Shown in pieces: positions 2,223 through 42,794 of a stretch of DNA of 61,111 nucleotides. The stretch's first letter is position 1, and the number at the start of each line of letters is the position of its first letter. The notes below the pieces were generated by a model, which was not told the origin of the DNA, made no database searches, and worked only from the letters and a program-made list of their open reading frames with translations. A program made the translations under genes and the position numbers. Origin of the DNA: a virus (taxonomy: Duplodnaviria; Caudoviricetes); the IMG/VR virus record IMGVR_UViG_3300016657_000047, positions 1-61,111 of that record; one strand, given 5' to 3'.

Positions 2223-3461
2223 TTAATAGTTAGTGCCGATTTTCTGATGGAACAATCGATCGTTCAAGAATCGATGAGTCGGATCTTTCGAATCAGACAA
2301 AGCCTGTTCAGTATTGTAATCTAGTGCTGTTTTAAATAAGTAATTAGGGCGAACGGTGCCGCCAGATGAAATTGACCAGCGACCATCCTCATAAGTCGAC
2401 CAGAAGTTCATGGTGCGACCAAACCCGCTAATAACTGGCCAGATAGGTGCAATATCGGACAAATACAAACCAGGCAAGGTGGTGGCAGGTAGTGCTTCAT
2501 ATTCAACGAAGATTTCTTTGTTGTCGAGTAGCACTACAAACGACTGACTTAACTGTAAATACTTGCGAATAGCAGCATCACTGTACAGTTGTTGAGGAGA
2601 CACTACACTAGGGTTAAAGTCCGAAGTATCAAGTTCAAGAGAGGAGAGATCAATGACATCACGCGACTCATAAAAGCGTTCAAGTAGCGGGATGTTTTCA
2701 AACTCGATGCAGAAAGACGTGTCACCAACACGATAGATCACGCGGTGGTCCAAAACGTGCAGATAACCACCAATGACCACCATTAGGGTTTTTTCATTGA
2801 GGTCTTCGCCAAGATTGATATAAGCACGCTTACCCAATTGTTCATCGGCAGTTTGATTATAAATCATGCTATCCGTGATTGGAATAACTTTAAGAGTACC
2901 TAGGTTCTTAAAGCTCGTGATACCAATATGGTTGTCGCGAGCCTGTCGTGCAGTAGCCATACCGTCAATTACCCAAATACCTTGATCATTGGCCTCAGTG
3001 CGATGATAAAAGCCATTGACCGTTACCATGCAAGTTTTGCCAAACAAAGCATAGTCGGTATTAGGACGAGTAAGGAACAACCAATCCTTAGCCCCGAGTG
3101 GTAGTTCGGCATCAGGCGATGTAAGTTCATTAATCGGATTGACTTTATAGCCAGATTTAAAGGCGTCGCCGTACAAAGCATAACGAACATTTAAGTTAGG
3201 AAGTGTAGGGCTGGTAGGTAGACTATTTTCACCCAGTGAAGCTAGGTATTCGTTGAAAGTTTGACTAGAGCCGGCCTGTTCTTTACGCACTGCATCCAGA
3301 TTAAAAGAAACGTTATTTGGTAGAAATGGGTTGCTGAGAATTGCTACGGTCTGACGGAAAGTAGTGTAGATATCAGACATAGGCATATTTCCGATATCGG
3401 CAGATTCCCAGCGTCCGTCAGAATCCACCGTCTTGACAACTGTTGAAACCAAGGTATACAT
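2223..3461 (-). CDS. putative virion structural protein (phiKZ-like)
   Basis: 412 aa with GGAGG RBS; beta-rich, with TVNG..H motifs resembling jumbo-phage virion proteins; divergent from the fibre genes. Confidence 0.6.
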   Translation of the reverse strand: MYTLVSTVVKTVDSDGRWESADIGNMPMSDIYTTFRQTVAILSNPFLPNNVSFNLDAVRKEQAGSSQTFNEYLASLGENSLPTSPTLPNLNVRYALYGDAFKSGYKVNPINELTSPDAELPLGAKDWLFLTRPNTDYALFGKTCMVTVNGFYHRTEANDQGIWVIDGMATARQARDNHIGITSFKNLGTLKVIPITDSMIYNQTADEQLGKRAYINLGEDLNEKTLMVVIGGYLHVLDHRVIYRVGDTSFCIEFENIPLLERFYESRDVIDLSSLELDTSDFNPSVVSPQQLYSDAAIRKYLQLSQSFVVLLDNKEIFVEYEALPATTLPGLYLSDIAPIWPVISGFGRTMNFWSTYEDGRWSISSGGTVRPNYLFKTALDYNTEQALSDSKDPTHRFLNDRLFHQKIGTNY

Positions 3462-3547
3462 GCACTTTACCTCCTAGTGGGGTTCTCAAATACTATAGAC
3501 TTAGCATTAGGTTCTATAGGATATCGGCTTTCACCAGGAGAGTGTGT

Positions 3548-5686
3548 ATGAGTACTATCCCCTCCTATCCATTTGACCCCACTGGTCTTTTGGCTAGTAA
3601 TTTGATCGCTGGCGAACAGCAGATCATCACCGCTAATAACTGGCGCGATTACCATTTCATCGTGCCAAAATATGCCCCCTACTTCATGGACACCATGAAG
3701 ATCATTTATAAAGACACAGTGGGCGTACAAAAGATTCTACAGAAAGGTGTAGACTGGTACGAGTCGCATGAATTTATTTCTGCGAGTCGAGCTTGCGCCA
3801 CTCCGATCTTTGGTTCGATTAGCTTCCTTAATACAAGTCTAGCCGGTGTGGTTACTTTACAGTACCAGACCATTGGCGGTATTTGGGTTCAGGATGAACA
3901 AAAGATTTCTGAAATACTGGCAAACGTACTTCATAACCCACGCGTCACAGCATGGGAAGAAGTAATCGACATGCCCTATGCATTTCCACCAATTGATCAC
4001 GAGTGGAATTTGGTCGACATGGTCGGTATGTCTGAGGTGGTCGAATCTCTTCGTGATATCGAGACTTACATTCGACAGCAAGGACAAGATGGTTTAGTGA
4101 ACCATTTGGCGGATTTTAATAATCCGCACCGAGTGTCTGCTGAACAAGTGGGCTTGGGTTACGTAAGGAACATGCCAACTGCCTCTAAGGCAGAAGCCAT
4201 GGCAGGTACATCCGATAATGTATACCTAACTCCATGGTCGGCCAATCAACTGGTTACTGCATTGTTCGGTAACGGCATGAACACTCATTTGCAGGATTTT
4301 AATAATCCACATCGAGTGACAGCCGAACAAGTCAATGCATACAACAAGCAAGCCATGGATAGTTTGCTAGCTAGTAAACTGAATACCACAGACGCTGCTG
4401 CAGACGCCAGTAAGTTTAACGGTATGTTGCCTGCCGAATATGCAGCATATGTCTTGCAAGGGACAGCAGCAAACTCTATCCTGTTTTCTGGGCGCACATA
4501 TCTGCAGCTGCTGGAAGATGTTCAGGGTGGTGCCAGTGCCAATGCCATGCAGTTTAATGGCATGGATCAAGATGCCTATAAAGCATTTGTATTGGGTTCT
4601 GGTGTAGCGTATGATAGCGCTCGTTTTGGTGGCGTGTTATATAACGACTTTGTTAATAACATTGCAAACTCAACAGTGCTGAATTCCCAGAATCTCAATG
4701 GTCTGTCTCTAGCACAAGTCACAACACAGATTCTTTCGGGTACCGCATCCAATGCTGCAAAGTTTGGTGGTCTGTCTCCGGGCGACTATGCTATTTCGGT
4801 ACTGCAAGGTACTGCCGCGAATGCTGAAACGTTGGCCGGTATGACACCTAGTCAACTAGCTGCTTGGATCATGTCGAGCACTTCCGCAGGCGCTGCGTCC
4901 GACAGCCTGAAGTTTGCGGGTATGGATAAGGACCAATACAAGGAATTTGTATTGGCTACTGGCTCTGCTTACGATAGTAATCGTTTTGGTGGCCTGACTC
5001 CGACTGAATTTATCGACCAAGTTCAGCAAGGTACAAGTGCCAATGCTGATATGTTTGCTGGGATGAATTATAATGACTGGCAAACAAACATTCTAGGCTT
5101 GATTGATGGTAAGGCAGCTAACCAAACTACTCATCTAGGAACGACAGGTGAGTCGATTCGCACAAACTATCGTGCACTGGGTAATCTACATATGCCAAGT
5201 GCCGGCGAACCAGCTTCGGCCTATCCAGATGCATTTTGGTTGGTTTCTGGTGGCGACTCTAATGGTGGTGTTGACTCGACTTTGTTCTTGGTGCGAGTTA
5301 ATGTTCGCGGTACGATCGGTACGCCGATTGTCAATGTTAAGTGTATTCATGGTAATGGATCTGACGCTACATTTGGCTGGAACACGACAACTATTGATGA
5401 CCCGACATCACCCGGCGGTTCGTATGTCCAAGCAACCATTTACATCTCTACAGCGCAAGATATTGGTACCATCACCGTGACGGAGCTGTCACGGAGTCAG
5501 GCATCGACTATTTTCACTGAGGCCAATGTTACTGCAGTGGTACCTACAGGTTTCCAGGTAGTGAATGGACCTTATGCTACTTTGGTTGATTCTAATGACT
5601 TCGCTGTATTGCAGGCAGATGTAGCAAGTGCGTTTGATTCTCTGACTACGGCATTTAATAACCTTCAGACTAGTCTGGGTGTTTAA
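3548..5686 (+). CDS. tail-fibre/baseplate-associated virion protein with NPH and A-x-(N/D)-(A/S)-x-x-F-x-G repeats
   Basis: Start reassigned to ATG 3548 (AGGAG RBS). N-terminal YPFDPTG domain shared with the next gene; two H..DFNNPHRV.AEQV repeats; ten ~23 aa tandem repeats. Confidence 0.75.
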   Translation: MSTIPSYPFDPTGLLASNLIAGEQQIITANNWRDYHFIVPKYAPYFMDTMKIIYKDTVGVQKILQKGVDWYESHEFISASRACATPIFGSISFLNTSLAGVVTLQYQTIGGIWVQDEQKISEILANVLHNPRVTAWEEVIDMPYAFPPIDHEWNLVDMVGMSEVVESLRDIETYIRQQGQDGLVNHLADFNNPHRVSAEQVGLGYVRNMPTASKAEAMAGTSDNVYLTPWSANQLVTALFGNGMNTHLQDFNNPHRVTAEQVNAYNKQAMDSLLASKLNTTDAAADASKFNGMLPAEYAAYVLQGTAANSILFSGRTYLQLLEDVQGGASANAMQFNGMDQDAYKAFVLGSGVAYDSARFGGVLYNDFVNNIANSTVLNSQNLNGLSLAQVTTQILSGTASNAAKFGGLSPGDYAISVLQGTAANAETLAGMTPSQLAAWIMSSTSAGAASDSLKFAGMDKDQYKEFVLATGSAYDSNRFGGLTPTEFIDQVQQGTSANADMFAGMNYNDWQTNILGLIDGKAANQTTHLGTTGESIRTNYRALGNLHMPSAGEPASAYPDAFWLVSGGDSNGGVDSTLFLVRVNVRGTIGTPIVNVKCIHGNGSDATFGWNTTTIDDPTSPGGSYVQATIYISTAQDIGTITVTELSRSQASTIFTEANVTAVVPTGFQVVNGPYATLVDSNDFAVLQADVASAFDSLTTAFNNLQTSLGV
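4396..5098 (+). repeat. ten ~23 aa tandem protein repeats (approximate bounds)
   Basis: AADASKFNG, AANSILFSG, SANAMQFNG, AYDSARFGG, VLNSQNLNG, ASNAAKFGG, AANAETLAG, ASDSLKFAG, AYDSNRFGG, SANADMFAG, each followed by a short helical segment. Confidence 0.8.
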
Positions 5687-5736: not shown

Positions 5737-6993
5737 ATGGTGCCTCAGGTAATTCGGTATCCGCTCGATCCAACGGGAACCAACCCGAATAACTTTATTC
5801 AGGGCGAACCACATACCTTAGTGAACCGTAAGGTGCGTGCTATTGCACCAACATATGGCGCGTTCTTCACGGAATCACTAAAAATCTACGATAGCAGTAC
5901 AAACCTACCGCTCACTAGCGAACAGTTTGAAGCGGTAGAGATGTATGAACTCCCTACTTACCGGTATGGTAAAGAGATCTGTTCTATTATACTGATCACT
6001 GATAGCAGCGTGAGTAATAACGTTACGCTCGACTATCAATGCCTAGGCGGTGAGTTCGGGTATTCAGTTGAAGCTATTGCTCAGCAGATTGAAAATCTTG
6101 ATCTCGACTCTAGACCAGTAGCGTGGCCGGATATCATTGCTAAGCCGAGAGACTATCCGCCTTCCATGCACTTGCATGATATCGGTGATGTATACGGGTT
6201 TGAATATCTGGTACATGCAATCGACCGTCTGCGTGCTGCTGTGGAATTGGGAGATGCTGCCTCTCACGATGTAATCTATGGCTACATCGATAAAATCGAA
6301 GGTCTATTACAGGCACAGTTGGATAGTCAAGGCAATGCTCTGCTAGCACATGAGAATGACTTTGGCAATCCACATCGAGTGACAGCCGAACAAATTAACG
6401 TTTACGTTAAAGGGGCGGTGGATGCCTTTATCAACCAACTGACGAATAACCTGAATGCACACGCAGCGGATCGTAATAATCCACACCAGGTAACGGCAGG
6501 TCAGTTGAAGGTATATCTCAAGACAGAGACTGATGCGCTACTTAGCAATCTGTTCACTACACTTAACAGCGTCTTAACTGACCATAAGGTCGATTACAAC
6601 AATCCACATCGGACTACAGCAGCGCAAGTGGGTGCGTATACCACGGCACAAATTGACACTAAGTTGTCAGATATCAATGCAAAGTTGACTAACCATACGA
6701 GTGATATTCAAAACCCACATCAAACAACCGCAGTCCAAGTAGGTTTGGGAAATGTGCCTAACCTTAAGATGGCTACAGCTACTGAATTCGCAGATGCTGT
6801 GGAAGCACGTTTTACAAACCCAGCTCAGGTGCAGTCATTGATGGAAACGCACAAAAACAGTGGTGATCACGATGCTCGGTATATTCTTAAAGGTGTGCCT
6901 GGTGTCGAATCTAGCCTTATGGTAAACAACGGTATTGGTTACATGTGGATTAACGGCGCATGGCGTCAGATCTGGCCGGCACAGTGGGCGTAA
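5737..6993 (+). CDS. tail-fibre-associated virion protein, paralog of 3548..5686
   Basis: N-terminal YPLDPTG..N...GE domain; four H..D..NPH..TA.Q repeats; C-terminal W.NGAWRQIW. Confidence 0.75.
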   Translation: MVPQVIRYPLDPTGTNPNNFIQGEPHTLVNRKVRAIAPTYGAFFTESLKIYDSSTNLPLTSEQFEAVEMYELPTYRYGKEICSIILITDSSVSNNVTLDYQCLGGEFGYSVEAIAQQIENLDLDSRPVAWPDIIAKPRDYPPSMHLHDIGDVYGFEYLVHAIDRLRAAVELGDAASHDVIYGYIDKIEGLLQAQLDSQGNALLAHENDFGNPHRVTAEQINVYVKGAVDAFINQLTNNLNAHAADRNNPHQVTAGQLKVYLKTETDALLSNLFTTLNSVLTDHKVDYNNPHRTTAAQVGAYTTAQIDTKLSDINAKLTNHTSDIQNPHQTTAVQVGLGNVPNLKMATATEFADAVEARFTNPAQVQSLMETHKNSGDHDARYILKGVPGVESSLMVNNGIGYMWINGAWRQIWPAQWA

Positions 6994-7000
6994 GAGAATG

Positions 7001-7054
7001 ATTCACTACTCTCGCTGGTGCGACAACCAGTGGGAGTGGTGAATGTTCTTTTTT
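7001..7054 (+). terminator. Rho-independent terminator
   Basis: Long imperfect stem ATTCACTACTCTCGCTGGT / ACCAGTGGGAGTGGTGAAT followed by a T-run. Confidence 0.75.
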
Positions 7055-7121
7055 ACGTTAGGAAATCATTGTATAGAAGTGGGATTTCCGACATCCGGTC
7101 TTGGCATGTTAGGAGTAACAA

Positions 7122-8282
7122 ATGGCTCAAATGTTGACAACAACGAGCGGGATTAGTAACCTTAATGTAGCCGCTATGCAGTCTGTGATTAACAATATCC
7201 GGGCACGATTGGCTACTAGTAAAAATATTCGAGCACAAGACATCCAGGATCTCATGTGGGTTTATAACTCTTGGATCCAACATACACACAGCGTGACGGA
7301 TTTCTACTGGACCGCTTACGGTAATGCGTCGGCATATAGCACCACATCAGTGAATGGGGTCACCAGTACCGTACTGCGCCCTGATCAGTTGACAGGTAAA
7401 AGCTTTAGGATCCTTGCCGACTTCGCTACACCTGACTCCGTCATTATGTGGCAAGTACCACCAGACATGTCGGAATTAAATGCCGTGGTAGTCGGAGGAG
7501 GAGGTGGTGGTGGAGGTAGTACGACCAAACCAAATTGGGATAGCGGCCCCGGCGCCGGTGGCGGTTCTGGTTATATTACCACTGCGACTATCCCGGTTAC
7601 ACCAGGTGAATGGCTCAGTATTGAAGTGGGCGCTGGCGGTACTCAGGGTACACATGGTCTTTATGTGTCTGGCGGTACTGGTGGGCGCGGTGGTACTTCA
7701 CGCATTAAGCGTGGCAATACTGTGCTGGCAGAAGCGCTTGGCGGCTTTGGGGGTGGAGGTGCTCGTTGGTGGGGCGGTGGTTCTAATTGGGGCAGTAGTG
7801 GTATGCCAGCTGCCCCCGGTGGCATTGGGCTTTTTAACGGTCAAAATGGTGGCGCCGGTAACAACGATATTGAACATTCTTATCAGGCCGGTAACGGTGC
7901 TGGTGTTGGTGGTCCTCCGAAGGTTAATATCTCCGGTGGTGATGGTTTAAATGGTTATGTTGGCGCTAAACAAGGTACTTCGCGTTGGCAAGGTTCTTGG
8001 CTACAAAACCAAGGGGGTGGTGGTGGCGGCTGGGCTGGAAACGGCAACGCCATGTTTGGTGGTTTGGGTGGTGGTGGTGGTGGGGGTGGCTTGAGCCGTG
8101 CCGGTGAAGTCGGTGGAAATGGCTATATAGCTTTCATTATCCCTATCCCACCGGTAGCCCAGGCTGATTTCCCTGATTTCATTAGCGGGGCCACTATCAA
8201 TACTGAATTGGTGCGGCGTTTTATTAGCATCATCAATGCGATTAAACAGCACAGCCACTCCATTACCGATACGTGGTATTAA
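7122..8282 (+). CDS. glycine-rich virion/fibre-like protein with two HxH modules
   Basis: Gly-rich domain (VVGGGGGGGG, GAGGGSG, VTPGE.L.I.VGAGG, GG.GYI) flanked by QHTHSVTD and QHSHSITD motifs; AGGAG RBS. Confidence 0.75.
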   Translation: MAQMLTTTSGISNLNVAAMQSVINNIRARLATSKNIRAQDIQDLMWVYNSWIQHTHSVTDFYWTAYGNASAYSTTSVNGVTSTVLRPDQLTGKSFRILADFATPDSVIMWQVPPDMSELNAVVVGGGGGGGGSTTKPNWDSGPGAGGGSGYITTATIPVTPGEWLSIEVGAGGTQGTHGLYVSGGTGGRGGTSRIKRGNTVLAEALGGFGGGGARWWGGGSNWGSSGMPAAPGGIGLFNGQNGGAGNNDIEHSYQAGNGAGVGGPPKVNISGGDGLNGYVGAKQGTSRWQGSWLQNQGGGGGGWAGNGNAMFGGLGGGGGGGGLSRAGEVGGNGYIAFIIPIPPVAQADFPDFISGATINTELVRRFISIINAIKQHSHSITDTWY

Positions 8283-8297
8283 TTTTAAGGTACAAAT

Positions 8298-8519
8298 ATG
8301 CCATCGTCTTCTTTTGAATACGTGTCGACAGTAGCGTCACCGCAACCAGATATCACACCTCCGGTAGCGGGCGCCACAATGTCACAATCCACCATCACTC
8401 AAATGACGGATGTGTTGGAATCCTTGTTGACGCATACCCATGTTTTTTACGACGATTATGGGACTGCATGCAATTGTAACTGCAATTGTAACTGCAACTG
8501 CACTCGCGGATCCCTTTAA
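8298..8519 (+). CDS. 73 aa Cys/Asn-repeat peptide, candidate RiPP-like precursor or modified fibre-tip peptide
   Basis: AAGG RBS; ends HTHVFYDDYGTACNCNCNCNCNCTRGSL (6 Cys, 5 Asn) using mixed synonymous codons; lies upstream of four radical SAM genes. Confidence 0.75.
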   Translation: MPSSSFEYVSTVASPQPDITPPVAGATMSQSTITQMTDVLESLLTHTHVFYDDYGTACNCNCNCNCNCTRGSL

Positions 8520-8566
8520 TCTCATTCTGTGGGTATTTTAACCAAAAAATAAAGGAGATTAGATAG

Positions 8567-8594
8567 CTCCCCACAACCCGAAGGCTGTGGGGAG
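8567..8594. terminator. stem-loop between convergent genes
   Basis: CTCCCCACA...TGTGGGGAG. Confidence 0.65.
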
Positions 8595-8599
8595 TATCG

Positions 8600-9661
8600 C
8601 TACTTAGTTTTCCTTTTCTTTCTATTACGTGCACTTTCTGCCAACTTAGCTCGATAGGCAGGATCAGCATTGCGTGCCCTGATCTTTTCGGTCTGTTGTG
8701 CACGGTAAACAGGGTCAGCCCAGCGGTTCTTGAGTTTACTCCCGATTTTCTTTCCGATATCAGGGTTATCTTCAAGTCGTTTCTTATTTACTTGATTACG
8801 GAATTCTTTGTATTCCGGATCTTTGTATTTCTCCGTGTGAATAGCACTGAGTTTAGCGCGAAGGTCAGGTTGATCGTCGTAACGTTGTTGATTGATCTCA
8901 GTTTGCTTTTGTCTGAACTCAGGATCTTGCCAGTTAGCAGCATGTGTTTCACTAAGCTTGTTATTCAGATCGCAGGACAGATACCGATCTTGGTTAGCCT
9001 TCGTGCGTTTAGCCCGCATCTCCGGATCAGCCCATTGATCGACCATGCGTGCACTGGCGTTCTTGACGTTCTTAGCACGTTTAACCGGATCAGCCCACTC
9101 AGCTTTCTTGCGGTCAGAACGACCCTGTCTTACTTTAGGATCTACATTGACCCTTTTTAAGTGTTCAAGATGTTTTTGAAGAAGGATAGGGTTATTGATG
9201 TACTGGGCTTTAACTGCACCACTGTGCAACTCACGTTGTTCCTCGGACATCGGAATTAAGTTGTTAGTGGCTACTGGAGAGAGATTGCAAATGAAAATGG
9301 ATTGTTTGAAGTAACTGATCAGTTCGTGTTCTACTTGCAGAGCTTCTTCGATTGTAGGATAAATACGGTAGTAGAAATCAATTTCGCTACCACTTTCTTT
9401 GTAGGAAAGTAGAACGTTACGATTCTTATGAGTGCCTCTGATTAGTTCAGATTTATGGCTTACTGCCCTGTTCCTGATAGCGGTTGAAGACCCAATGTAG
9501 AAGGTGCCCAGTTTATAGAAATGAAGAATGTAAACACCAGGTTCGTTGGGAATCAACGATACCATACCTGTATTGAAGAGATTAGTTCTCTGATAACCTA
9601 ACAGATTAACATGATCCAATGCGATGCGATCATGTGGTTCATGGTCGACTGAGTTAGTCAT
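8600..9661 (-). CDS. GIY-YIG homing endonuclease with repetitive helical C-terminal region
   Basis: GVYILH..FYIGSS..R...H...L..GTHKN, E..LI, N motifs; C-terminal (W/Y).DP..R.K repeats. Confidence 0.85.
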   Translation of the reverse strand: MTNSVDHEPHDRIALDHVNLLGYQRTNLFNTGMVSLIPNEPGVYILHFYKLGTFYIGSSTAIRNRAVSHKSELIRGTHKNRNVLLSYKESGSEIDFYYRIYPTIEEALQVEHELISYFKQSIFICNLSPVATNNLIPMSEEQRELHSGAVKAQYINNPILLQKHLEHLKRVNVDPKVRQGRSDRKKAEWADPVKRAKNVKNASARMVDQWADPEMRAKRTKANQDRYLSCDLNNKLSETHAANWQDPEFRQKQTEINQQRYDDQPDLRAKLSAIHTEKYKDPEYKEFRNQVNKKRLEDNPDIGKKIGSKLKNRWADPVYRAQQTEKIRARNADPAYRAKLAESARNRKKRKTK

Positions 9662-9696
9662 TGTGCTTCCTTTCGATCATTAATGTTACCCTCGTT

Positions 9697-9720
9697 CAAA
9701 TATGTAATATGTGTTTGAAA
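9697..9720 (-). promoter_or_regulatory. candidate phage early promoter (motif copy 1)
   Basis: Minus strand TTTCAAACACATATTACATATTTG; resembles the phiKZ early TATATTAC element and three other copies in this window. Confidence 0.5.
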
Positions 9721-9739
9721 AAGAAAGGAACAAAATAGA

Positions 9740-10642
9740 ATGAAAACCATTTTTATTAAAAGTGGCAATTATACCGAAACACCAGGTATTACTGCCGCTG
9801 GTGCTATTAATAGCATCCACGATTTTAATGTTTCTCACATGGCAAACATTAAAACAGATATGGCATTCAGGTTTGATTTGATTAATGGCGAGTATCGTCT
9901 GTATCTATCGCCTCGATTCACTAGCGGTGCAGAAATCTATCGTACCGTGGATGTGGATCTCATGTGCCGTAAAGCAGACCAGTTTGGTTTTGTATATTTT
10001 GGTTCTGTGTCAGATGGTCGAGATGTCTTGGGTGTTCCTGACATTCTGAAGTCACTGAAGATTGTCGGCCTCGATGCCAAAACTGGAGCGTTCTTTAATT
10101 GCGAGACAGGGCGTCCAGCTACTGGTAATACCATCGTACCAGTTCTCTTCTGTGTGAAGATGGCCACTGATACATACGCGTTGATAATGTCGTCATTCGC
10201 GTATGCTGATGCCCATCTAGCAAATAGCCTGGATGATGTATCGGTGATGGTTGGTGACAAAACCGTAGTGTTGGCCAACGAAGGTGACTATATTCGTAGT
10301 CAGTTTGTTGACGTACAGTTTAAAAATGTACGTAAATACATCCGTAATTCGTCCGACACTGGTGGTCATGCGGTTTTTGTGGGGCGTGGGACTAAAGTGG
10401 AAGTTGACGTTTTCCGAAATATGCCATTTGTTGATGAGGCATTCAGGAAGAACTTCCCGCTGACTGTGGATAGTAATTTTGATTACACGGTTAGCGATGG
10501 CCGCATTTCATTTACAGTACCTGAAGAACCAATGTCTGGGTATCTGTCTATCGCGATACAGACTAGCAAACTCTACGACTTGATGGCTAAGAGCGTAGAA
10601 CGTGAGTCTTTGTCTTACGACTTTATAGTGGTTGTTTTATAA
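9740..10642 (+). CDS. hypothetical protein in the radical SAM cluster
   Basis: 300 aa ORF with AAAGGA RBS; no recognised motif. Confidence 0.75.
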   Translation: MKTIFIKSGNYTETPGITAAGAINSIHDFNVSHMANIKTDMAFRFDLINGEYRLYLSPRFTSGAEIYRTVDVDLMCRKADQFGFVYFGSVSDGRDVLGVPDILKSLKIVGLDAKTGAFFNCETGRPATGNTIVPVLFCVKMATDTYALIMSSFAYADAHLANSLDDVSVMVGDKTVVLANEGDYIRSQFVDVQFKNVRKYIRNSSDTGGHAVFVGRGTKVEVDVFRNMPFVDEAFRKNFPLTVDSNFDYTVSDGRISFTVPEEPMSGYLSIAIQTSKLYDLMAKSVERESLSYDFIVVVL

Positions 10643-10650
10643 AATGGGTA

Positions 10651-10690
10651 GCTAGAGACAATAGACGGAACATAGTCTATTGTCTCTAGC
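10651..10690. terminator. perfect 16 bp stem-loop inside the cluster
   Basis: GCTAGAGACAATAGAC-(8 nt)-GTCTATTGTCTCTAGC. Confidence 0.65.
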
Positions 10691-10710
10691 GTCTTTATAA
10701 AGGGAAGAAA

Positions 10711-12327
10711 ATGCAATCACAAACTATTAAATTTCATCAAAAGAAACCGACAGAGCGCATCAAGAAAGTTGCAGAAGTTAAAGACATTCTGTTTTCGGAA
10801 TTGAAAGTACTAAATGTCATTCTGACCAATGCATGTAACCTTTCATGTAGCTATTGTTTCGAACAACATAAAAAAGACTATGGCAAGTTTACTCAGGAAC
10901 AATTGAAGCAGGTTTATGATTTCCTAGTGAGCGCTAACGATCTACCAAACCGTAACTTTCAGTTCTTTGGTGGTGAGCCGCTGGCGCAGAAGGCCAAGAT
11001 CCTGGAGTTCTGTCGCACATACAAAGAAGAGCTGTCGGCGAATAAAGAAAAGGTGCGAGTATCGATTGTTACTAACGCCCTGTTGCTGACGCCTGAGTTT
11101 ATGAAAGAGTATTGCAGTTATGACTTCACCTCTTTGGTGATTTCGCTGGATACTGATAACGCCGAAACTAATCGACGCGAATTGACGAAAGAAAATATCG
11201 ACTACATCTTTGATATGCTCGAGTTGATTCCCGATTACATGATGCGCGAGAATCACCATTGTGCCATTCGTTGTACTATCAATGAAGAAAGTGTACCATA
11301 TCTGCGTGGGTTCATGCATCGTCTTTATGGGTCGGGGGTTCGCAACTTTGTTATTCACCCGCTAATCATGGGTCGTGAACAGGGTGTAGTGGAATGGGTA
11401 ATGCCGGCGTCAGCTGAATACCGCGAAGAGAAGCAAAATAACGCAGCAACTTCATGGGATGAAATGACTGATGAGCTGAAGTCCATGATGTTTCGTTATC
11501 CGGACTTCAAGATTCATTGGGCTGAAGGTGTAGGCGTTAAGGGTGAATCCAACTGCATGGTCGGTTCGGATATGATTGCCATGGATGCCTCTGGTGATTT
11601 CAGTGGCTGCTACTTCTTCACTAACCTGAAGGAGACCGCAGGCCACACCATGTTGGGTAACCTGTTCCGTGACGAAATCTACATCGATCGTTACGTGAAC
11701 TTCCAGAAGAACTATGTAGATGCACTGGAACATGAAGAGTGTCAGTCGTGTCATCTGAAGAACTTCTGCTACCAATGCCCGGCTGGTAACATTTCTACTG
11801 GCGATAAACTGTTCCGTCCTGATGGCATGTGTAAACGTATTGTGCAGCTGTTCATTGATCTGCGTGAACATGCAAATAAACAAGCGATGCATAAGAAGTT
11901 TGCCGACATCAATGCTGCCCTCAAAGTAGAAGGCGAAGTGGTGTTGTCTCGTGCAGTACTACACTTGATGTACAAGCACTGCAACGATGAACGTCTGGAT
12001 ACCGACATGGTAAATAGCCTGACTAATTTGCCACATCATCGGTACCTACTGACGGCATTTAAGGATAACTACGATGGTAAAGTACTTCCGTCTGTAGATG
12101 AATTCTTGAGTTCCTTCAGTGCCTCCAGAAAGACTTCGGCACTTGCATTGTATTCGCACGCCTGCAAAGCTAATGGTGTTCCTATTCCGTTGGATGTTTA
12201 CGAACTGGAAGATTCCAGTCAGGATGCGGCATTCATCACTCTGCTGCATTTGTTGGTCATCAACAATAGCAGCTATCTTAACAAATACGATCCGGCACAT
12301 TCCCGTAGCCAGATCCTCGACCTGTAA
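10711..12327 (+). CDS. radical SAM/SPASM-domain protein 1
   Basis: CNLSCSYC (CxxxCxxC), FFGGEP, TN, ISLD; SPASM-type cysteines CMVG..GC..CQSCHLKNFCYQCP..C; extra C-terminal helical domain. Confidence 0.92.
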   Translation: MQSQTIKFHQKKPTERIKKVAEVKDILFSELKVLNVILTNACNLSCSYCFEQHKKDYGKFTQEQLKQVYDFLVSANDLPNRNFQFFGGEPLAQKAKILEFCRTYKEELSANKEKVRVSIVTNALLLTPEFMKEYCSYDFTSLVISLDTDNAETNRRELTKENIDYIFDMLELIPDYMMRENHHCAIRCTINEESVPYLRGFMHRLYGSGVRNFVIHPLIMGREQGVVEWVMPASAEYREEKQNNAATSWDEMTDELKSMMFRYPDFKIHWAEGVGVKGESNCMVGSDMIAMDASGDFSGCYFFTNLKETAGHTMLGNLFRDEIYIDRYVNFQKNYVDALEHEECQSCHLKNFCYQCPAGNISTGDKLFRPDGMCKRIVQLFIDLREHANKQAMHKKFADINAALKVEGEVVLSRAVLHLMYKHCNDERLDTDMVNSLTNLPHHRYLLTAFKDNYDGKVLPSVDEFLSSFSASRKTSALALYSHACKANGVPIPLDVYELEDSSQDAAFITLLHLLVINNSSYLNKYDPAHSRSQILDL

Positions 12328-12340
12328 GAGAACTTGACCC

Positions 12341-13420
12341 ATGAACTACGATAACATCCAAGACGTATCCATTTACGTTGGTCCTGCTTGCAACTTCAAC
12401 TGCACGTATTGCGACCGCGCTTACGTGAAGAATGTAGGTGTGGATGCTGCTGAATGTGATCCGGCTTTGATCGACTTCGTAGTTGATGTGGTCGAACATT
12501 CTGAAAAACCAATGGTTTCCTTCCATGGCGGGGAGCCATTGGTTTACATTAAAACCATGCGGAAGATTATCTTGGCGATTCTGGAACGTGTCCCGGATTT
12601 CAAAGACAAGGCAATCTTCTTTATTCAGACTAACGGTTCGTTGATTCTACAGCACCGTTCATTCTTCGAAGAATTCAAAGACGTGCTGTATGTAAGCATC
12701 AGCTACGACTTTCATCATCAGGGTTTGAATCGTACCGAGTACGATATTGAAGCGACGTTGACTTTCTTACAAGGTCAAAACATCGACGTGCAATTCCAGT
12801 ACGTAATTCCGACGAATGAAAAGTCGGTGTTTAGTCCTGAGACTTTTAACGCGATCATCAAGCTGTACCGCGAATACAAGATCTCGTGTTTGAACTTGAT
12901 CCTGTTGCGCCACATCCGTCGGGAAGATCGGTTTGAAACGGTGATTGCTGATGAAACACTCTACCTACAGCAGTTCTTTACGGCTTTCTTGCAGTTTGTG
13001 CAGTTGCTATACGTCTCTGGCATTAACCTGTTTATAGATGGCCATACTACCAAGATTGATAAGCAGTACTTTGAGAATCATAAGCAGTTGGTATTGGCTC
13101 CCAATGGCATGATTGTTCCGGAGTACCAGTTTATTGAATACGATGATTACGATTTTGCTATTGGTCGCTGGAAGCCCTACGTGGAAGTCATCCGAGACCA
13201 AATGCCTAAGAAGGCTGCAGACAAGATTCGTAAACCGTGTCATGGCTGCCAAGCACGTGAGCTATGTGGACTACAGTACCACTACGCTATCTTCGATATG
13301 GATCCGCCAACGCCAAATCGGTGTAGAGAATTCTATCTACTAAACAAGATCGCTATCAAACATCTGTATAAGCTCAAAGAGAAACCGACGTTACTTCAGC
13401 ATTTGGGTATTCAACAATGA
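12341..13420 (+). CDS. radical SAM protein 2 with partial SPASM
   Basis: CNFNCTYC, FHGGEP, QTNG, ISYD; C-terminal CHGCQARELC..C. Confidence 0.9.
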   Translation: MNYDNIQDVSIYVGPACNFNCTYCDRAYVKNVGVDAAECDPALIDFVVDVVEHSEKPMVSFHGGEPLVYIKTMRKIILAILERVPDFKDKAIFFIQTNGSLILQHRSFFEEFKDVLYVSISYDFHHQGLNRTEYDIEATLTFLQGQNIDVQFQYVIPTNEKSVFSPETFNAIIKLYREYKISCLNLILLRHIRREDRFETVIADETLYLQQFFTAFLQFVQLLYVSGINLFIDGHTTKIDKQYFENHKQLVLAPNGMIVPEYQFIEYDDYDFAIGRWKPYVEVIRDQMPKKAADKIRKPCHGCQARELCGLQYHYAIFDMDPPTPNRCREFYLLNKIAIKHLYKLKEKPTLLQHLGIQQ

Positions 13421-14562
13421 CTAAAGAAATCGAGATTATCGACCCCAAATACCACTTCGTTATACACGACAGTTTAGAGAACATCAACTTCGATGTGACA
13501 TACTCCGTGTTTAAGAAGTACAACTGTAAGGCTGGTTGCAAGCTTTGTTATATCCGTGATGACTTTCTACCAGATGCAAAGTTTAAGTCGTACATTCCAA
13601 TCAGCCAGTCATTGGAAGAGAAAAGTTACATCGATCGTTTAATGTCGTTCCTATCTCACTTCCATATGGCGGCCACCATTGACGACATGTGGTTCTTAAA
13701 ACACGATCATCCAGAACACTTCCGTTTCTATCAAGCAATGGACAATGTGTTCTGGCTGTCTTCGATGACTGACAATGCTGTGTTCCGCCATCTAGACATC
13801 ATTGAGAACGATATCAAAGTAAAAGGCTTACGGGAAATCTCCATTAGCGAAGAGTTCTTGTACTCGGTGAATATCAACAAGTTACTACATGTACTGTATC
13901 GCATCCAGCGTAAAGCCAAGATCATGAAGGTGAAAATCATCCTTCAGGGTATTGAAGACAGTAATATGTGGCATAGTAACCGCTGTGAAGCTTTGGTGTC
14001 CTGGTGCCGTACAAACGACGTTATGGTCGAGAAGCAGTGTGAGTATGGAAAGGATACGACAAGCTCACCAGAGGTGCTTAAAACGCTGGGAAACACCCGT
14101 TACAGCAGCGATAGAACCTTTACCGAAGAAACTACCTACAGCGAAAACAAAACTGACCTGTATCCGATCCATTCCGAGTCGTTATTTCTGATGCATGATG
14201 ACTTCTATTCGGAATTGAAATCTGCAACCTCGGAAGGTTACAGTACTCCGTTTGCCAATCTGAAGGACTTTGATGATCCAGTAAAGTTCTTGGCTAAAGT
14301 CCTTCAAGGCAAAGTAACAGACTATGCTAGGTATGTGAATTCGATTCAAGATAAAGACAACGTCTACTACCAGTATTTCAAATACGTGGTGGACAACATC
14401 AAGATCAATCCAGATTTTAACTTCATTCCCCATATTGCAATGAAGAACTATACCGACTACTTTAAGAAGATTGTGGAGAGTGGTCGTATGGTAGCTACGC
14501 AATACGGACTACTCGATCCTACGAATAGTGAAGTTATTATCCCACTGTACACAATGAAATAG
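13417..14562 (+). CDS. divergent radical SAM-like protein 3
   Basis: N-terminal CKAGCKLC (CxxxCxxC) but no GGEP and no SPASM; ATGA overlap with the previous gene. Confidence 0.65.
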   Translation: MTKEIEIIDPKYHFVIHDSLENINFDVTYSVFKKYNCKAGCKLCYIRDDFLPDAKFKSYIPISQSLEEKSYIDRLMSFLSHFHMAATIDDMWFLKHDHPEHFRFYQAMDNVFWLSSMTDNAVFRHLDIIENDIKVKGLREISISEEFLYSVNINKLLHVLYRIQRKAKIMKVKIILQGIEDSNMWHSNRCEALVSWCRTNDVMVEKQCEYGKDTTSSPEVLKTLGNTRYSSDRTFTEETTYSENKTDLYPIHSESLFLMHDDFYSELKSATSEGYSTPFANLKDFDDPVKFLAKVLQGKVTDYARYVNSIQDKDNVYYQYFKYVVDNIKINPDFNFIPHIAMKNYTDYFKKIVESGRMVATQYGLLDPTNSEVIIPLYTMK

Positions 14563-14564
14563 CC

Positions 14565-15812
14565 ATGAGCCTAACATCTTTTCGGATTGAAAAAACTGGT
14601 GAAATCTTTCAGTACGACAACAGTCTGAATACGATTCTCAATGCAGCAGGCGCGCCATTGGGTAAAGAATCGTTTTTGTTGCCAGAGCCTCCTAAGTACC
14701 ATAAGTCAGATGCACCACACACAATCAAAGTGATCTTGGGGCACGCATGTAACTATAGTTGTACCTATTGCGTGCAGAAGGACATTGGTAATCCGGCGGA
14801 GCGGCCAAAGAACTTCATGACTGGTGAATTGATCCGCAAGATCAAGAAACGCCTTGACTTGGGGCAGTTGACTCGTGTGGAGCTATGGGGAGGCGAAACG
14901 CTGTTGTATTGGTCCGACATCATTGAGATCATGACAGCATTAGATGACAAGAAGATCAGTTGGTATATCCCAACCAATGGCACCATCTTGAAATTGAAGC
15001 ATGCTGAATTCTTCAAGAAACTTAAGGGTAAGGTTAGCATCGGTATCAGTCACGATGGGCCTGGTCATGTCGCGCTGCGTGGTCCGGAATTCCTGCATCG
15101 TAAAGTAGAAGAACTTCGTGCTTTACAAGATGCCGGTATTCAATTCAGCTTTAATGCAGTGATCACCACTACTAACTACAATCTCTTTAAAATCGATGAG
15201 TATTTCAAATCGTTCCTAATGGAACATAATTTGAAACCAGTACCGATCGTTTACGAAGTAGGGCGTACTTACGAAACTGGTGCCTGCGCTACTGAGTCGC
15301 ATGTAGTTACTGCCGAACAGATTCCAGAATACCGCACGATCCTAAAGCAATACTTACGTCGCCATTACTTTGAGTCTAAGCGTTATTCGCGTTGGAATGA
15401 ATACATGCTGCTGCCTACCAATTTGTACCATTTCGGTAGTGGCGCGATTCCATATGCCAAAACACTCGCCCAGCAAAGTCCAATCCATCATTATTCCAAT
15501 TGTGGTACGGATCACCCTGGTTTGATCACATTGGACATGAATGGTAATTTGCGGACATGCCAGAACTCTAATGACGAATACATCTACGGTAATGTGATCA
15601 ACATTACCCAAGTTAACATGAAGAAGGTAGACTACGTCAAAGACGACTTCTGTAAGGATTGCTCGGTACTTCGACTCTGTAATCGCAGCTGCCCTATTGA
15701 TTTGCCTTTTAACACATTCTTGGCTAATCATCAGATCGAGAATGCACACTACTCTGAAATTCAACTAATGGCTTTCGAAGTATTGTTTGAAAGCCCTGTA
15801 ACTAAAGTGTAA
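14565..15812 (+). CDS. radical SAM/SPASM-domain protein 4
   Basis: CNYSCTYC, LWGGET, PTNG, ISHDG; SPASM cysteines CG..C..CKDCSVLRLCNRSCP. Confidence 0.92.
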   Translation: MSLTSFRIEKTGEIFQYDNSLNTILNAAGAPLGKESFLLPEPPKYHKSDAPHTIKVILGHACNYSCTYCVQKDIGNPAERPKNFMTGELIRKIKKRLDLGQLTRVELWGGETLLYWSDIIEIMTALDDKKISWYIPTNGTILKLKHAEFFKKLKGKVSIGISHDGPGHVALRGPEFLHRKVEELRALQDAGIQFSFNAVITTTNYNLFKIDEYFKSFLMEHNLKPVPIVYEVGRTYETGACATESHVVTAEQIPEYRTILKQYLRRHYFESKRYSRWNEYMLLPTNLYHFGSGAIPYAKTLAQQSPIHHYSNCGTDHPGLITLDMNGNLRTCQNSNDEYIYGNVINITQVNMKKVDYVKDDFCKDCSVLRLCNRSCPIDLPFNTFLANHQIENAHYSEIQLMAFEVLFESPVTKV

Positions 15813-15827
15813 TCGCAAGGAATCATC

Positions 15828-16634
15828 ATGTCTAAATTTCTCGAACCTTTCACTTACCCAGAAACAAAAGCCCAAGTTGCTCTACTGGAAACTAAACTAG
15901 AGCAACTTAAAAACCATCCGGTTTTTAATTACATCAGCAATATTTACGACCTCCAAACCCTAATGCAGTGGCAGGTATTTGCAGTATGGGAATTTATGTC
16001 GATCGTTAAACGTTTGCAGTGTGAATATACTGGTTTACGTTTCCCTTGGGTGCCCCCACGAAATCAACAAACTGCACGATTCTTTAACGAACTCGTACTT
16101 GCATTGGAAAGTTATAAAACAGAAGATGGATCACATCAAAGCCATCTTGAGTTTTACATCGAAGCAATGCGTGATTCTAATACCACAACCAAAGTGATTG
16201 TTGAGTTCATTAATCTACTGCGTTTTGGTCTTCCGCCAGTAGTGGCCGCAGAACGCGCGGGTGCAAATGAAGAAATTAAAACCAGTGTTTCTGCAACTAC
16301 TGAAACAGTGAACTCTTCGTCAAATGAAGTAGTGTTGAGTACTTTCTTATTTGGTTATGTAGCAGCCATACCCACGATGTTTAAAAACATCAAGACTAAA
16401 CTGAAGGTACCTGAAGAGAGTATTCATAAGTACTCACGCTATTTGCAATATTACATTGATCTAGACAGCGATGAGTTCAACGCAGTAGCTATTGAAACGC
16501 TGGTTGCTGAACTTGATGGTGATGTGATTCGTACCGAAGCAGCACTAAAAGCAGCACTCGATGTTATTAATAGATACATTAAGCTGTTTGATGTACTTCA
16601 ATTGTCAATCGAAGTTAATAAACCTCTACAATAA
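15828..16634 (+). CDS. DUF3050-like (heme-oxygenase-like fold) protein with degenerate metal site
   Basis: HP.F, VFAVWEFMS.VKRLQ, WVP, RFFNE.VL..ES, SH.E.Y..AM; ligand positions altered relative to the next gene. Confidence 0.75.
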   Translation: MSKFLEPFTYPETKAQVALLETKLEQLKNHPVFNYISNIYDLQTLMQWQVFAVWEFMSIVKRLQCEYTGLRFPWVPPRNQQTARFFNELVLALESYKTEDGSHQSHLEFYIEAMRDSNTTTKVIVEFINLLRFGLPPVVAAERAGANEEIKTSVSATTETVNSSSNEVVLSTFLFGYVAAIPTMFKNIKTKLKVPEESIHKYSRYLQYYIDLDSDEFNAVAIETLVAELDGDVIRTEAALKAALDVINRYIKLFDVLQLSIEVNKPLQ

Positions 16635-16653
16635 ACGGAGAAAAGAGCGGGAT

Positions 16654-17442
16654 ATGGTTAATTCGCAGTCACTAATTACCAACCACCCAGCATATGGGCG
16701 GTTGAATGAGGTTACTGAAACTCTGAAGACACATCCGATCTTTAGTAGTGTTCGGACTATTGAGCAATTGCGTGCATTTATGGAATGGCATGTATTTGCA
16801 GTATGGGACTTTATGTCCCTAGTTAAGCGTATTCAGAGTCAGTATGCATCTACTCGCATACTGTGGGTACCATCCCGCAATTCTCGTATCACTCGTTTTA
16901 TCAATGAGATAGTGCTGGCCGAAGAATCCGATGTTCTTCCTAACGGCACCTATTGTAGTCATTTTGAATTGTATCTACAAGCTATGAAGGAAATTGGTGC
17001 ATCTACAGAGACTATCGATAAATTCATTAGCCAGATTCAATTCGAAACCCCTGTTTCAGCCGCAACAAAACAAGTAGGTGATATCGATCCAGCTATTTGT
17101 CAGTATGTCGAGCGCACTACTAATTTAGCACTTCGGGCTGCTAATATTGATGTGCTGGGGGAATTTGTCTTTGGGCGGGAGAATGTAATCCCTGGAATGT
17201 TCCGTACATTACTTAAAGAGTTGGATTTTACAAAGGAACAATGCCCTTTGTTTATCCACTACCTTGAGCGGCATATTGAGATTGACGGTGATGACCATGG
17301 TCCGATGGCATTGGGCATGCTAGAAGATGAAGCCATGGGTAGTGAAACGCTGGTCGGACGTGCCATTCAGACGGGCATTGCTGCAATAGAGAGTCGTATC
17401 CTTTTCTGGGATAAGGCGCTTGAGACAATTAAACAGGTATAA
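16654..17442 (+). CDS. DUF3050-like heme-oxygenase-like diiron protein
   Basis: Start reassigned to ATG 16654. FMEWHVFAVWDFMSLVKR, RFINEIVLAEESD, SHFELYL.AM, FGRE..IP.MF, YLERHIEIDGDDHGP. Confidence 0.85.
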   Translation: MVNSQSLITNHPAYGRLNEVTETLKTHPIFSSVRTIEQLRAFMEWHVFAVWDFMSLVKRIQSQYASTRILWVPSRNSRITRFINEIVLAEESDVLPNGTYCSHFELYLQAMKEIGASTETIDKFISQIQFETPVSAATKQVGDIDPAICQYVERTTNLALRAANIDVLGEFVFGRENVIPGMFRTLLKELDFTKEQCPLFIHYLERHIEIDGDDHGPMALGMLEDEAMGSETLVGRAIQTGIAAIESRILFWDKALETIKQV

Positions 17443-42699: not shown

Positions 42700-42794
42700 G
42701 TTTTCACCCAGTTGGTAAGAGATAAATGCAGTACTTTTTCGCACTACATTTCAGATTGTATGATGCATAAAATACCAGTGTGAAAGATAACCCT

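Follow-up and report, generated by a model that had tools for sequence, protein, structure and literature searches.

A cysteine-ladder peptide of giant tailed phages, most likely stapled by the radical-SAM enzymes encoded beside it among tail-fibre genes

A small, strongly conserved, cysteine-rich peptide encoded by giant tailed phages is most likely stapled by enzymes, and would be of a kind so far undescribed in viruses, because it always lies beside a set of radical S-adenosylmethionine (radical-SAM) enzymes among tail-fibre genes. The member described here is the product of an open reading frame (ORF) at positions 8298..8519 (plus strand, ATG start, 73 residues; P0001) of the window, by which we mean the whole IMG/VR record IMGVR_UViG_3300016657_000047 (61,111 bases, estimated completeness 21%). 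Its genes, which include a major head protein, a polymerase and virion structural proteins, are those of a giant tailed phage. From the sequence comparisons given below, we infer that the peptide is the dedicated substrate of the adjoining radical-SAM cassette. A fuller reading, in which these enzymes staple the cysteines into a thioether ladder in an Asn-x-x-Cys (NxxC) register and the product stays on a His-x-His (HxH) module as a small tail-fibre-associated protein, has in our estimate about an even chance of being right.

The ladder peptide and its family

The full peptide reads MPSSSFEYVSTVASPQPDITPPVAGATMSQSTITQMTDVLESLLTHTHVFYDDYGTACNCNCNCNCNCTRGSL and ends in HTHVFYDDYGTA-CNCNCNCNCNC-TRGSL, where the stretch before the ladder is ...LESLLTHTHVFYDDYGTA. 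Its ORF begins 15 nt past the stop of an upstream companion gene, and AAGG lies 8-11 nt 5' of the ATG. An amphipathic helix-like stretch and the HxH module together span I33-Y54 (8394..8459, plus strand), as delimited by the column statistics of alignment A3. The ladder itself, C58-N-C-N-C-N-C-N-C-N-C68 with six Cys and five Asn (8469..8501, plus strand), has its first Cys 9 residues past H48 and contains four overlapping N-x-x-C motifs (N59-C62, N61-C64, N63-C66 and N65-C68). It is followed by a conserved tail, TRGSL (8502..8516, plus strand), in which R70 and G71 are invariant in alignment A3.

A first-pass annotation of this DNA, made from the letters alone, had placed the ladder at 8469-8501 and had pointed to its mixture of TGC with TGT and of AAT with AAC codons, and both observations were confirmed. 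Tandem Repeats Finder described the ladder DNA as 2.4 copies of the 12-nt unit TGCAATTGTAAC, and the degenerate pattern TGYAAYTGYAAYTGY, which encodes C-N-C-N-C, gave four overlapping matches at the ladder and none elsewhere in the window, where 0 were expected from 100 shuffles. The ladder exceeds chance, and it exceeds a microsatellite. The annotation had also held that the codon mixture fits selection on the protein better than a pure microsatellite, a view that is borne out by the homologues: across 36 alignable codons from 18 loci, mean nonsynonymous divergence (pN) was 0.24 against a saturated mean synonymous divergence (pS) of 0.88, and both Cys codons were in use (TGT 43, TGC 30). These comparisons establish ORF 8298-8519 as a genuine gene on whose protein selection acts.

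Relatives of the peptide were recovered by several searches. By tblastn, two Ralstonia jumbo phages, RP12 and RP31, were found to have a 65-residue ORF without annotation; its product closes with ...LDSLLSHTHVFYDNYGS-NCNCNCAC-TRGSL, and its stop codon overlaps the following gene's start. A search by words, which is biased to CNCNC cores, returned 65 relatives among 5.8 billion proteins, and a profile search of 1.84 billion cluster representatives returned 79 matches at E <=0.001, 50 of them at <=1e-10. At least three alternating Cys were present in 62 of the 79 profile matches, and the remaining 17 were short fragments, ladder-free variants and companion-like proteins. Once loci fetched later were included, there were 170 unique peptides with an HxH, a 9-residue spacing and a ladder, and 132 distinct sequences from the HxH to the end, counts that take in near-duplicates from related samples. 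For the peptide itself, no family matched at E <=0.1 in NCBIfam or at <=0.01 in Pfam and PHROGs.

The N-terminus of the family is variable and of low complexity, with a weak E-(N/D)-x-S-T motif. Ahead of the HxH, column statistics place heptad-like hydrophobic positions at 33, 36/37, 40 and 43/44. Residues L40, L43, H46, H48 and D52 are invariant in the peptide alignment, and the run F50, Y51, D52, D53 and Y54 is nearly invariant in the family, giving a module consensus of H-x-H followed by (I/V/T)-(F/Y)-(Y/T)-D-(D)-Y-x-(T/S)-(A/V/N). In 61 of the 62 ladder-bearing profile matches the first ladder Cys lies 9 residues from the HxH. The ladders of these 62 proteins have three Cys in 14 cases, four in 16, five in 20 and six in 12, and are usually followed by x-R-G-x-hydrophobic and a stop, the RG tail being present in 48.

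Between the ladder Cys of the same matches we counted N 109 times, Q 54, D 15, A 14, E 9, T 5, R 5 and others 5, and N, Q, D and E together fill 187 of 216 positions. Because whole clades use E, Q or D between the Cys, Asn is not the constant of the family; what stays the same across the aligned sequences is that Cys recurs at every other position and is separated from the next by an amide or an acid. Conservation also falls along the ladder: among the 132 distinct sequences, N/Q/D/E occupies the first intervening position (x1) in 99%, x2 in 98%, x3 in 88% and the last x in 68%, where Ala is found in 24%.

The part of the peptide ahead of the ladder had been taken for a leader-like region. Instead, it holds a conserved HxH module that is common to the companion protein and stands at a fixed 9-residue spacing from the ladder. 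The companion (7122..8282, plus strand) has two such modules round a glycine-rich domain (Pfam Gly_rich_2, 6.3e-13) and matches phrog_31780 over residues 1-80 (1.6e-20). A module scan located YNSWIQHTHSVTDFY at residue 48 and INAIKQHSHSITDTW at residue 371 of the companion, and within the window the module occurs in the companion and peptide ORFs only. In a profile-profile comparison, peptide residues 18-52 aligned with module 2 of the companion at E 1.2e-4 (probability 55%). Relatives of the companion in other loci are about 125 residues long and have two modules, each with an invariant H, H and D. A profile search of the companion against the PDB gave nothing significant (best E 0.5), and neither companion nor peptide matched a fibre-repeat or metallothionein family in Pfam. 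In the ESM Atlas, the companion fell with viral clusters without a Pfam family, with a weak match (0.78) to a cluster in which PF27846, a family of Cxxx-repeat radical-SAM targets, is present in 25% of members.

Natural variants have two or three HxH modules ahead of the ladder. One 230-residue protein (P0082) has three modules and a ladder, and one of 256 residues (P0097) continues past its ladder through a poly-Pro linker into a domain of about 190 residues. A 390-residue protein (P0127), which may be cut at a contig end, runs from a Gly-rich companion into a peptide-like module ending ...DNY. Some companions have C-terminal extensions past module 2 that replace the Gly-rich insertion (locus L012, 2670-4025, 452 residues; locus L010, 2366-3247, 294 residues).

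The radical-SAM cassette and its co-inheritance

Downstream of the peptide, the window encodes in order protein U, enzymes A (538 residues) and B (359), protein D (381), enzyme C (415) and two DUF3050 proteins, all on the plus strand, and the cassette genes abut or overlap. Enzyme A (10711..12327; Pfam Radical_SAM 2.3e-18) is a radical-SAM enzyme with a 7-Cys SPASM domain (SPASM 0.016 over residues 282-348). Enzyme B (12341..13420; Radical_SAM 6.2e-11) is twitch-like, and enzyme C (14565..15812; Radical_SAM 5.9e-12) carries a SPASM CX2CX5CX3C motif. Protein D (13417..14562; phrog_36229, 1.8e-136) has a CX3CX2C motif and is of unknown family.

The peptide and these enzymes are found together whichever of them is used to search. 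All nine loci first found by peptide similarity have A, B, D and C downstream in the same order. A scan of IMG/VR with a profile of protein D, which is independent of the peptide, found 21 loci, among them seven contigs already in the peptide scan, RP12 itself and several near-identical pairs; this alignment-based profile was needed, since a scan of viral contigs with the single protein D sequence gave nothing. By the criterion of the first-pass annotation, its reading would fall if relatives that keep the enzymes had lost the repeat, and this was not the case: the peptide with its ladder is kept in all 21 loci that keep the enzymes. The neighbouring SPASM-type radical-SAM proteins find their best family matches among thioether formers. 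When metagenome contigs, some of which to judge by their equal lengths are the same viruses as IMG/VR contigs, were scanned with the peptide as anchor, 44 loci were found, 43 of them with the whole peptide ORF. Enzyme A adjoined the peptide in 40 of these 43, and the three loci without it have just 187, 994 and 675 nt of downstream DNA. The A-B-D-C order was present in every peptide-anchored locus with at least 6 kb downstream. The possibility that the radical-SAM genes are unrelated neighbours is ruled out by this linkage (21/21 and 40/43).

Two gene orders were observed. In a shorthand where K denotes the companion, p the peptide and H DUF3050, the first (type A) is K-p-U-A-B-D-C with N-rich ladders, and the second (type B) is K-(one gene)-U-p-A-B-D-C-H with E/Q-rich ladders. 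On a tree built from 44 distinct sequences of enzyme A, ladders switched just once from N-type to Q/E-type (support 87/75), and peptide and enzyme A have been kept together over branches of more than one change per site. As read from these sequences, the tree reflects long co-inheritance and not independent co-evolution. At locus L018, on the same contig as L007, an enzyme A paralogue (8420-9694) forms a fifth radical-SAM gene, and it lies with an unmatched 242-residue ORF between D and C.

Cysteines present in at least 90% of 16 sequences were considered conserved. By this measure, enzyme A has C42/46/49 (CX3CX2C) together with C282, C300, C344-x2-C347-x5-C353-x2-C356 and C374, enzyme B has C17/21/24 and the C-terminal C300, C303, C309 and C328, and enzyme C has C62/66/69 with C313, C332, C363, C366, C372 and C376. 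The top NCBIfam matches of enzyme A are PapB (2.8e-35), the SCIFF maturase (1.7e-22), an ScfB-related family (5.3e-21) and the QhpD type (7.2e-20), and its best PDB relative is CteB (5wgg, 5.3e-18, residues 30-359 against 95-418). Passages of PMC9389541 and PMC13692751 show all of these named enzymes to be formers of Cys thioethers. PapB is also the best NCBIfam match of enzyme B (1.4e-14). Enzyme C is closest to the anaerobic sulfatase maturase (2.3e-16), and DynA and other cross-linkers match as well. In protein D, C37, C41 and C44 (CX3CX2C) are invariant; a profile search found no PDB relative, and hhalign against enzyme B aligned the motif alone (E 0.012, probability 3.6%). Protein D is possibly a fourth, very divergent radical-SAM-like protein, to judge from this motif.

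Protein U (9740..10642; about 300 residues, of unknown function; phrog_32604, 3.2e-67) always adjoins the peptide. Only N24 and Y146 are invariant in its alignment of 16 sequences, and it has no Pfam, NCBIfam or PDB match and no family outside phages. The two tandem DUF3050 genes (haem-oxygenase-like; 15828-16634, Pfam 1.4e-51, and 16561-17442, Pfam 6.7e-78) overlap by 74 nt as listed. RP12 and the type-B loci have one copy, which closes the cassette in all five type-B loci tested, and several type-A loci have none beside the cassette. Passages on the mangotoxin operon (PMC3298696) report that its MgoB matches Pfam DUF3050.

Tail-fibre-like genes adjoin the cassette in both gene orders, which suggests from gene context a fibre-associated role. 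In the window, two tail-fibre or virion-structural-like genes lie 5' of the cassette on the plus strand, at 3443..5686 (phrog_2163 virion structural protein, 1.8e-72; phrog_13857 tail protein, 8.8e-68) and at 5737..6993 (phrog_2163, 8.6e-95; phrog_8147 tail fiber protein, 1.2e-30). The TTG start listed for the former overlaps a divergent gene (2223-3461, minus strand) by 19 nt and the PHROG matches begin at about residue 36, for which reasons its true start is probably further in. In the type-B order, a phrog_19602 tail-fibre protein lies upstream, with a phrog_3304 fibre-assembly protein and a virion structural protein downstream.

Proposed chemistry and competing explanations

Under the reading we favour, enzyme A, perhaps with B, would hold a Cys thiol on its auxiliary iron-sulfur (Fe-S) clusters, a side-chain hydrogen would be abstracted from the Asn, Gln, Asp or Glu three residues upstream of that Cys, and the sulfur would be joined to the side-chain carbon in a ranthionine-type thioether. 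Repetition along the ladder would yield overlapping small rings, acceptor(i)-to-Cys(i+3), and enzymes C, D and DUF3050 may add further steps. Enzymes of the SPASM type hold the Cys thiol on an auxiliary cluster and join it to a carbon radical of another residue. According to passages of PMC9389541, NxxcB couples the thiol to the beta-carbon of an Asn that stands three residues upstream, a place at which Ala, Gln and Asp are also tolerated, and PapB and CteB form beta- and gamma-thioethers. The residues found between the ladder Cys are those of the known acceptor set, which supports a thioether ladder.

The conservation gradient bears on the register of such links. In the NxxC register the last ladder x has no Cys three residues downstream, and the opposite register would instead free the first x, which is nevertheless N/Q/D/E in 99% of sequences. 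The NxxC register is therefore favoured, because only the last x is relaxed while x1 is conserved. In this respect the first-pass annotation, which saw a core of overlapping NxxC motifs, was partly right: the register fits the gradient, and our reading extends its idea from Asn to N/Q/D/E, but Asn is not the invariant partner.

A more speculative extension is that the HxH module stays uncut and that the stapled small protein works with the companion in the tail-fibre apparatus. We favour this whole-product form because multi-module and extended variants exist, because the 9-residue spacing is fixed, and because no protease or exporter family is found in the cassette (a search for leader peptidase or exporter families among the cassette proteins in Pfam, PHROGs and NCBIfam gave none). 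A still more specific proposal, that the cassette is a virion-maturation pathway in which the stapled HxH peptide and the two-module companion form a metal-clamped, thioether-stapled tail-fibre element, is one we hold tentatively and consider somewhat doubtful.

Several observations weigh against the favoured reading. With regard to the enzymes, the scores of A (122.1 bits) and B (54 bits) against PapB lie well under the NCBIfam cut-off of 340 (NF047865), and because scores are so far below curated cut-offs the enzymes resemble the named families without membership in them. No PqqD or other recognition element for peptides made on the ribosome and modified after translation (RiPPs) was detected in any of A, B, C, D and U, with E allowed up to 10. 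A cryptic recognition element is possible in U or in an N-terminal enzyme A segment of about 45 residues (consensus ...H-K-A-S-V...D-G...I-I-T-P-K-G-L...), and this segment could be a small substrate-binding element; it is present in the other 14 aligned members and lacking from enzyme A of the window and of RP12. With regard to the peptide, its N-terminal 25 or so residues are variable, of low complexity and leader-like, some x positions are Ala, and the residue three before the first Cys is Gly, Ser or Thr, which leaves some Cys without an obvious acceptor. In this window, moreover, a homing endonuclease gene and a hairpin part the peptide from the enzymes. All of the ladder chemistry is drawn by analogy from family resemblance, and gene neighbourhood is the one line that suggests the fibre association. 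Finally, the rings made by radical-SAM enzymes already known to form thioethers are larger or do not overlap, and to our knowledge an overlapping ladder on alternate residues is unprecedented.

The strongest competitor is a classical RiPP, in which the HxH part would be a cleaved leader or recognition sequence and a free stapled core of some 15-20 residues would have an antibacterial, signalling or host-takeover role, at lysis or within the cell. A short ORF directly 5' of SPASM radical-SAM genes is the textbook layout for such a system, the nearest enzyme families are RiPP maturases, and the variable N-terminus, the conserved motif beside the core and the conserved C-terminal tail would all be at home in a precursor. 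Set against this, the supposed leader module occurs twice in the ladder-free companion and up to three times in single chains, it keeps its 9-residue distance from the ladder in 61 of 62 proteins, and one natural form runs past the ladder into a domain of about 190 residues. The cassette also offers no protease, exporter or immunity family in Pfam or NCBIfam, and fibre genes stand round it in both gene orders. We regard this explanation as unlikely, though the best of those that compete with a retained, stapled ladder.

Radical-SAM chemistry of another sort, such as sactionine C-alpha links, formylglycine made by enzyme C, aromatic cross-links in the F/Y-D-D-Y run, or a combination of them in which side-chain thioethers are few or absent, appears improbable. 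It would make sense of three or four different radical-SAM proteins, of the near-invariance of F50, Y51, D52, D53 and Y54, and of the proximity of enzyme C to the anaerobic sulfatase maturase, DynA and other cross-linkers, and with all matches under the family cut-offs function is not transferable. The position-dependent preference for N/Q/D/E is what side-chain acceptors predict, whereas C-alpha links and formylglycine need no such preference, and the four best families of enzyme A are PapB (a ranthionine former), the SCIFF maturase, an ScfB-related orphan maturase and the QhpD type.

We attach a similarly small probability to an unmodified metal- or Fe-S-binding peptide (metallothionein-like, a metal-stabilized piece of a fibre, or an Fe-S or sulfur donor), with the enzymes acting instead on a small molecule, on a fibre protein or on the companion; the first-pass annotation had also raised a metal- or Fe-S-binding element. 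Thiolate clusters classically use the CxC motif, and in phage fibres metal is bound on the axis by HxH sites. The peptide places six Cys and two His within 23 residues, and the ladder-free companion is equally conserved in the operon. Metal binding leaves unexplained why N/Q/D/E is strict between the Cys and relaxed only at the last position; in addition, the peptide matches no Pfam family, metallothioneins included, occurs only with these enzymes and had no match in the prokaryote genome pattern scans. The last candidate, a spurious ORF arising from a hexa- or dodecanucleotide microsatellite in an open frame, can draw on the short tandem repeat in the DNA and on a ladder that varies from three to six Cys among relatives, but it is refuted by protein conservation under saturated synonymous change, 170 unique relatives in a fixed register and the conserved operon position.

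Occurrence, genomic setting and comparison with known systems

The family was found in phage and metagenome sequence only, and on that basis appears to be phage-restricted. A megablast of window positions 7000-12400 against cultured phages gave no match. Among cultured phages, the peptide and protein D occur in RP12 and RP31 only, and the full-length enzyme A is present in 3 of 12 cultured-phage records, which belong to these same two phages. Pattern scans of a prokaryote genome collection (about 185,000 species), with one short pattern each from the protein D and peptide profiles, detected no relative, and a plasmid collection gave no match to the 122-residue two-module form. Sequencing runs with the family were of freshwater and drinking-water metagenome DNA, with no RNA run among those listed. 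Assemblies assigned to Ewingella americana, Yersinia ruckeri and Salmonella enterica record two-module ladder proteins of 122 residues (P0021, P0022 and P0033) as "hypothetical"; the contigs concerned measure 246-253 kb, a size that suggests giant-phage genomes inside bacterial assemblies.

The peptide gene is easy to miss, as it is without annotation in the RP12 and RP31 records. In the passages of the RP12/RP31 genome paper that concern these loci (PMC5468394), 'radical SAM / MoaA / MgoB' genes are only listed by name. A comparative overview of jumbo phages (PMC7824862) does not mention 'radical SAM', and literature searches on radical-SAM, phage and precursor-peptide topics found no description of the family.

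In the window, a convergent GIY-YIG homing-endonuclease-like gene (8600..9661, minus strand; Pfam GIY-YIG 1.4e-7, phrog_314 homing endonuclease) separates the peptide from the remainder of its operon. The other seven type-A loci listed have no such gene there, and in them the longest next ORF overlaps the peptide stop or begins no more than about 16 nt from it. By this comparison, the endonuclease gene is an insertion and not part of the system. The gap between it and the peptide gene holds a stable hairpin (8562..8598; RNA fold -30.8 kcal/mol, z -3.5), which was not called by a simple terminator scan. Elsewhere in the window, an HNH-endonuclease-like gene (38841-40259, plus strand; phrog_59, 7.2e-36) brings the homing-endonuclease-like genes of the record to at least two, and a 1027-residue protein (42780-45863, plus strand) matches DNA helicase phrog_62, DNA primase phrog_510 and terminase-large-subunit PHROGs.

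Bacteria and archaea are already known to have Cys peptides stapled by radical-SAM enzymes, and here the related enzymes occur in a phage tail-fibre gene module. What is new is the alternating C-(N/Q/D/E) core at a fixed distance from an HxH module, the module itself, the phage setting, the presence of three or four radical-SAM proteins and possibly the role. If the ladder is cross-linked as proposed, it would represent a new thioether topology and a compact scaffold that could interest peptide engineers. Should the product belong to the virion, phage morphogenesis would gain a new form in which Fe-S radical chemistry of an anaerobic type hardens a structural protein, and if the virion-maturation proposal is correct, viruses would have their first example of a structural protein matured by radical-SAM enzymes, with a new ring topology of overlapping thioether rings on alternate residues. 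The 'radical SAM / MoaA / MgoB' genes of RP12 and RP31 would then also have a function.

Four groups of known systems invite comparison. The first comprises the HxH metal sites of T4 gp37 and gp12 fibres and the CxC thiolate clusters of metallothioneins. The phage peptide may resemble them in its invariant HxH past a heptad-like stretch, its alternating Cys and its fibre gene neighbours, and differs in that it has no Pfam fibre-repeat or metallothionein match and that its companion has no solved structure match.

The streptococcal pair NxxcA/NxxcB has nearly the same acceptor set as that between the ladder Cys, and the conservation gradient fits the same register. In the passages of PMC9389541 that describe this pair, a single beta-thioether is formed, as opposed to three to six overlapping motifs in the phage ladder. 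The settings differ as well, the one streptococcal and the other a phage cassette with three or four radical-SAM proteins and DUF3050, in which no leader-processing genes were found. No NxxcB-named family is among the best 25 NCBIfam matches listed per enzyme, and the presence of such a model in the library was not checked.

The ranthipeptides and SCIFF peptides (PapA/PapB and CteA/CteB) also have Cys-rich C-terminal cores, with SPASM cross-links to side-chain carbons of Asp, Glu or Thr; as noted above, A and B match PapB best in NCBIfam, and among solved structures A is closest to CteB (5wgg). The Cys of PapA are spaced as CX3D, whereas those of the phage ladder are CxC. Further differences are the score (122 against 340 bits), the phage-only setting and a peptide without an NCBIfam family. 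The alignment with CteB begins at CteB residue 95, and the N-terminal domain before it, which we take to be the recognition element of CteB, has no counterpart in enzyme A.

The closest analogues for a ladder that is retained in the whole product are QhpC/QhpD and CrpA/CrpC. In passages of PMC13692751, QhpD is described as linking Cys once to Glu and twice to Asp within a small protein subunit, and CrpC as stapling a Cys-rich archaeal protein, and in both systems a SPASM enzyme staples Cys to Asp or Glu in a small subunit that stays in a larger assembly. Those substrates belong to a cellular enzyme and to an archaeal Cys-rich protein and come with a recognition element, whereas the phage peptide has an alternating ladder and sits in a tail-fibre module, where its neighbouring enzyme A matches the QhpD type at 7.2e-20.

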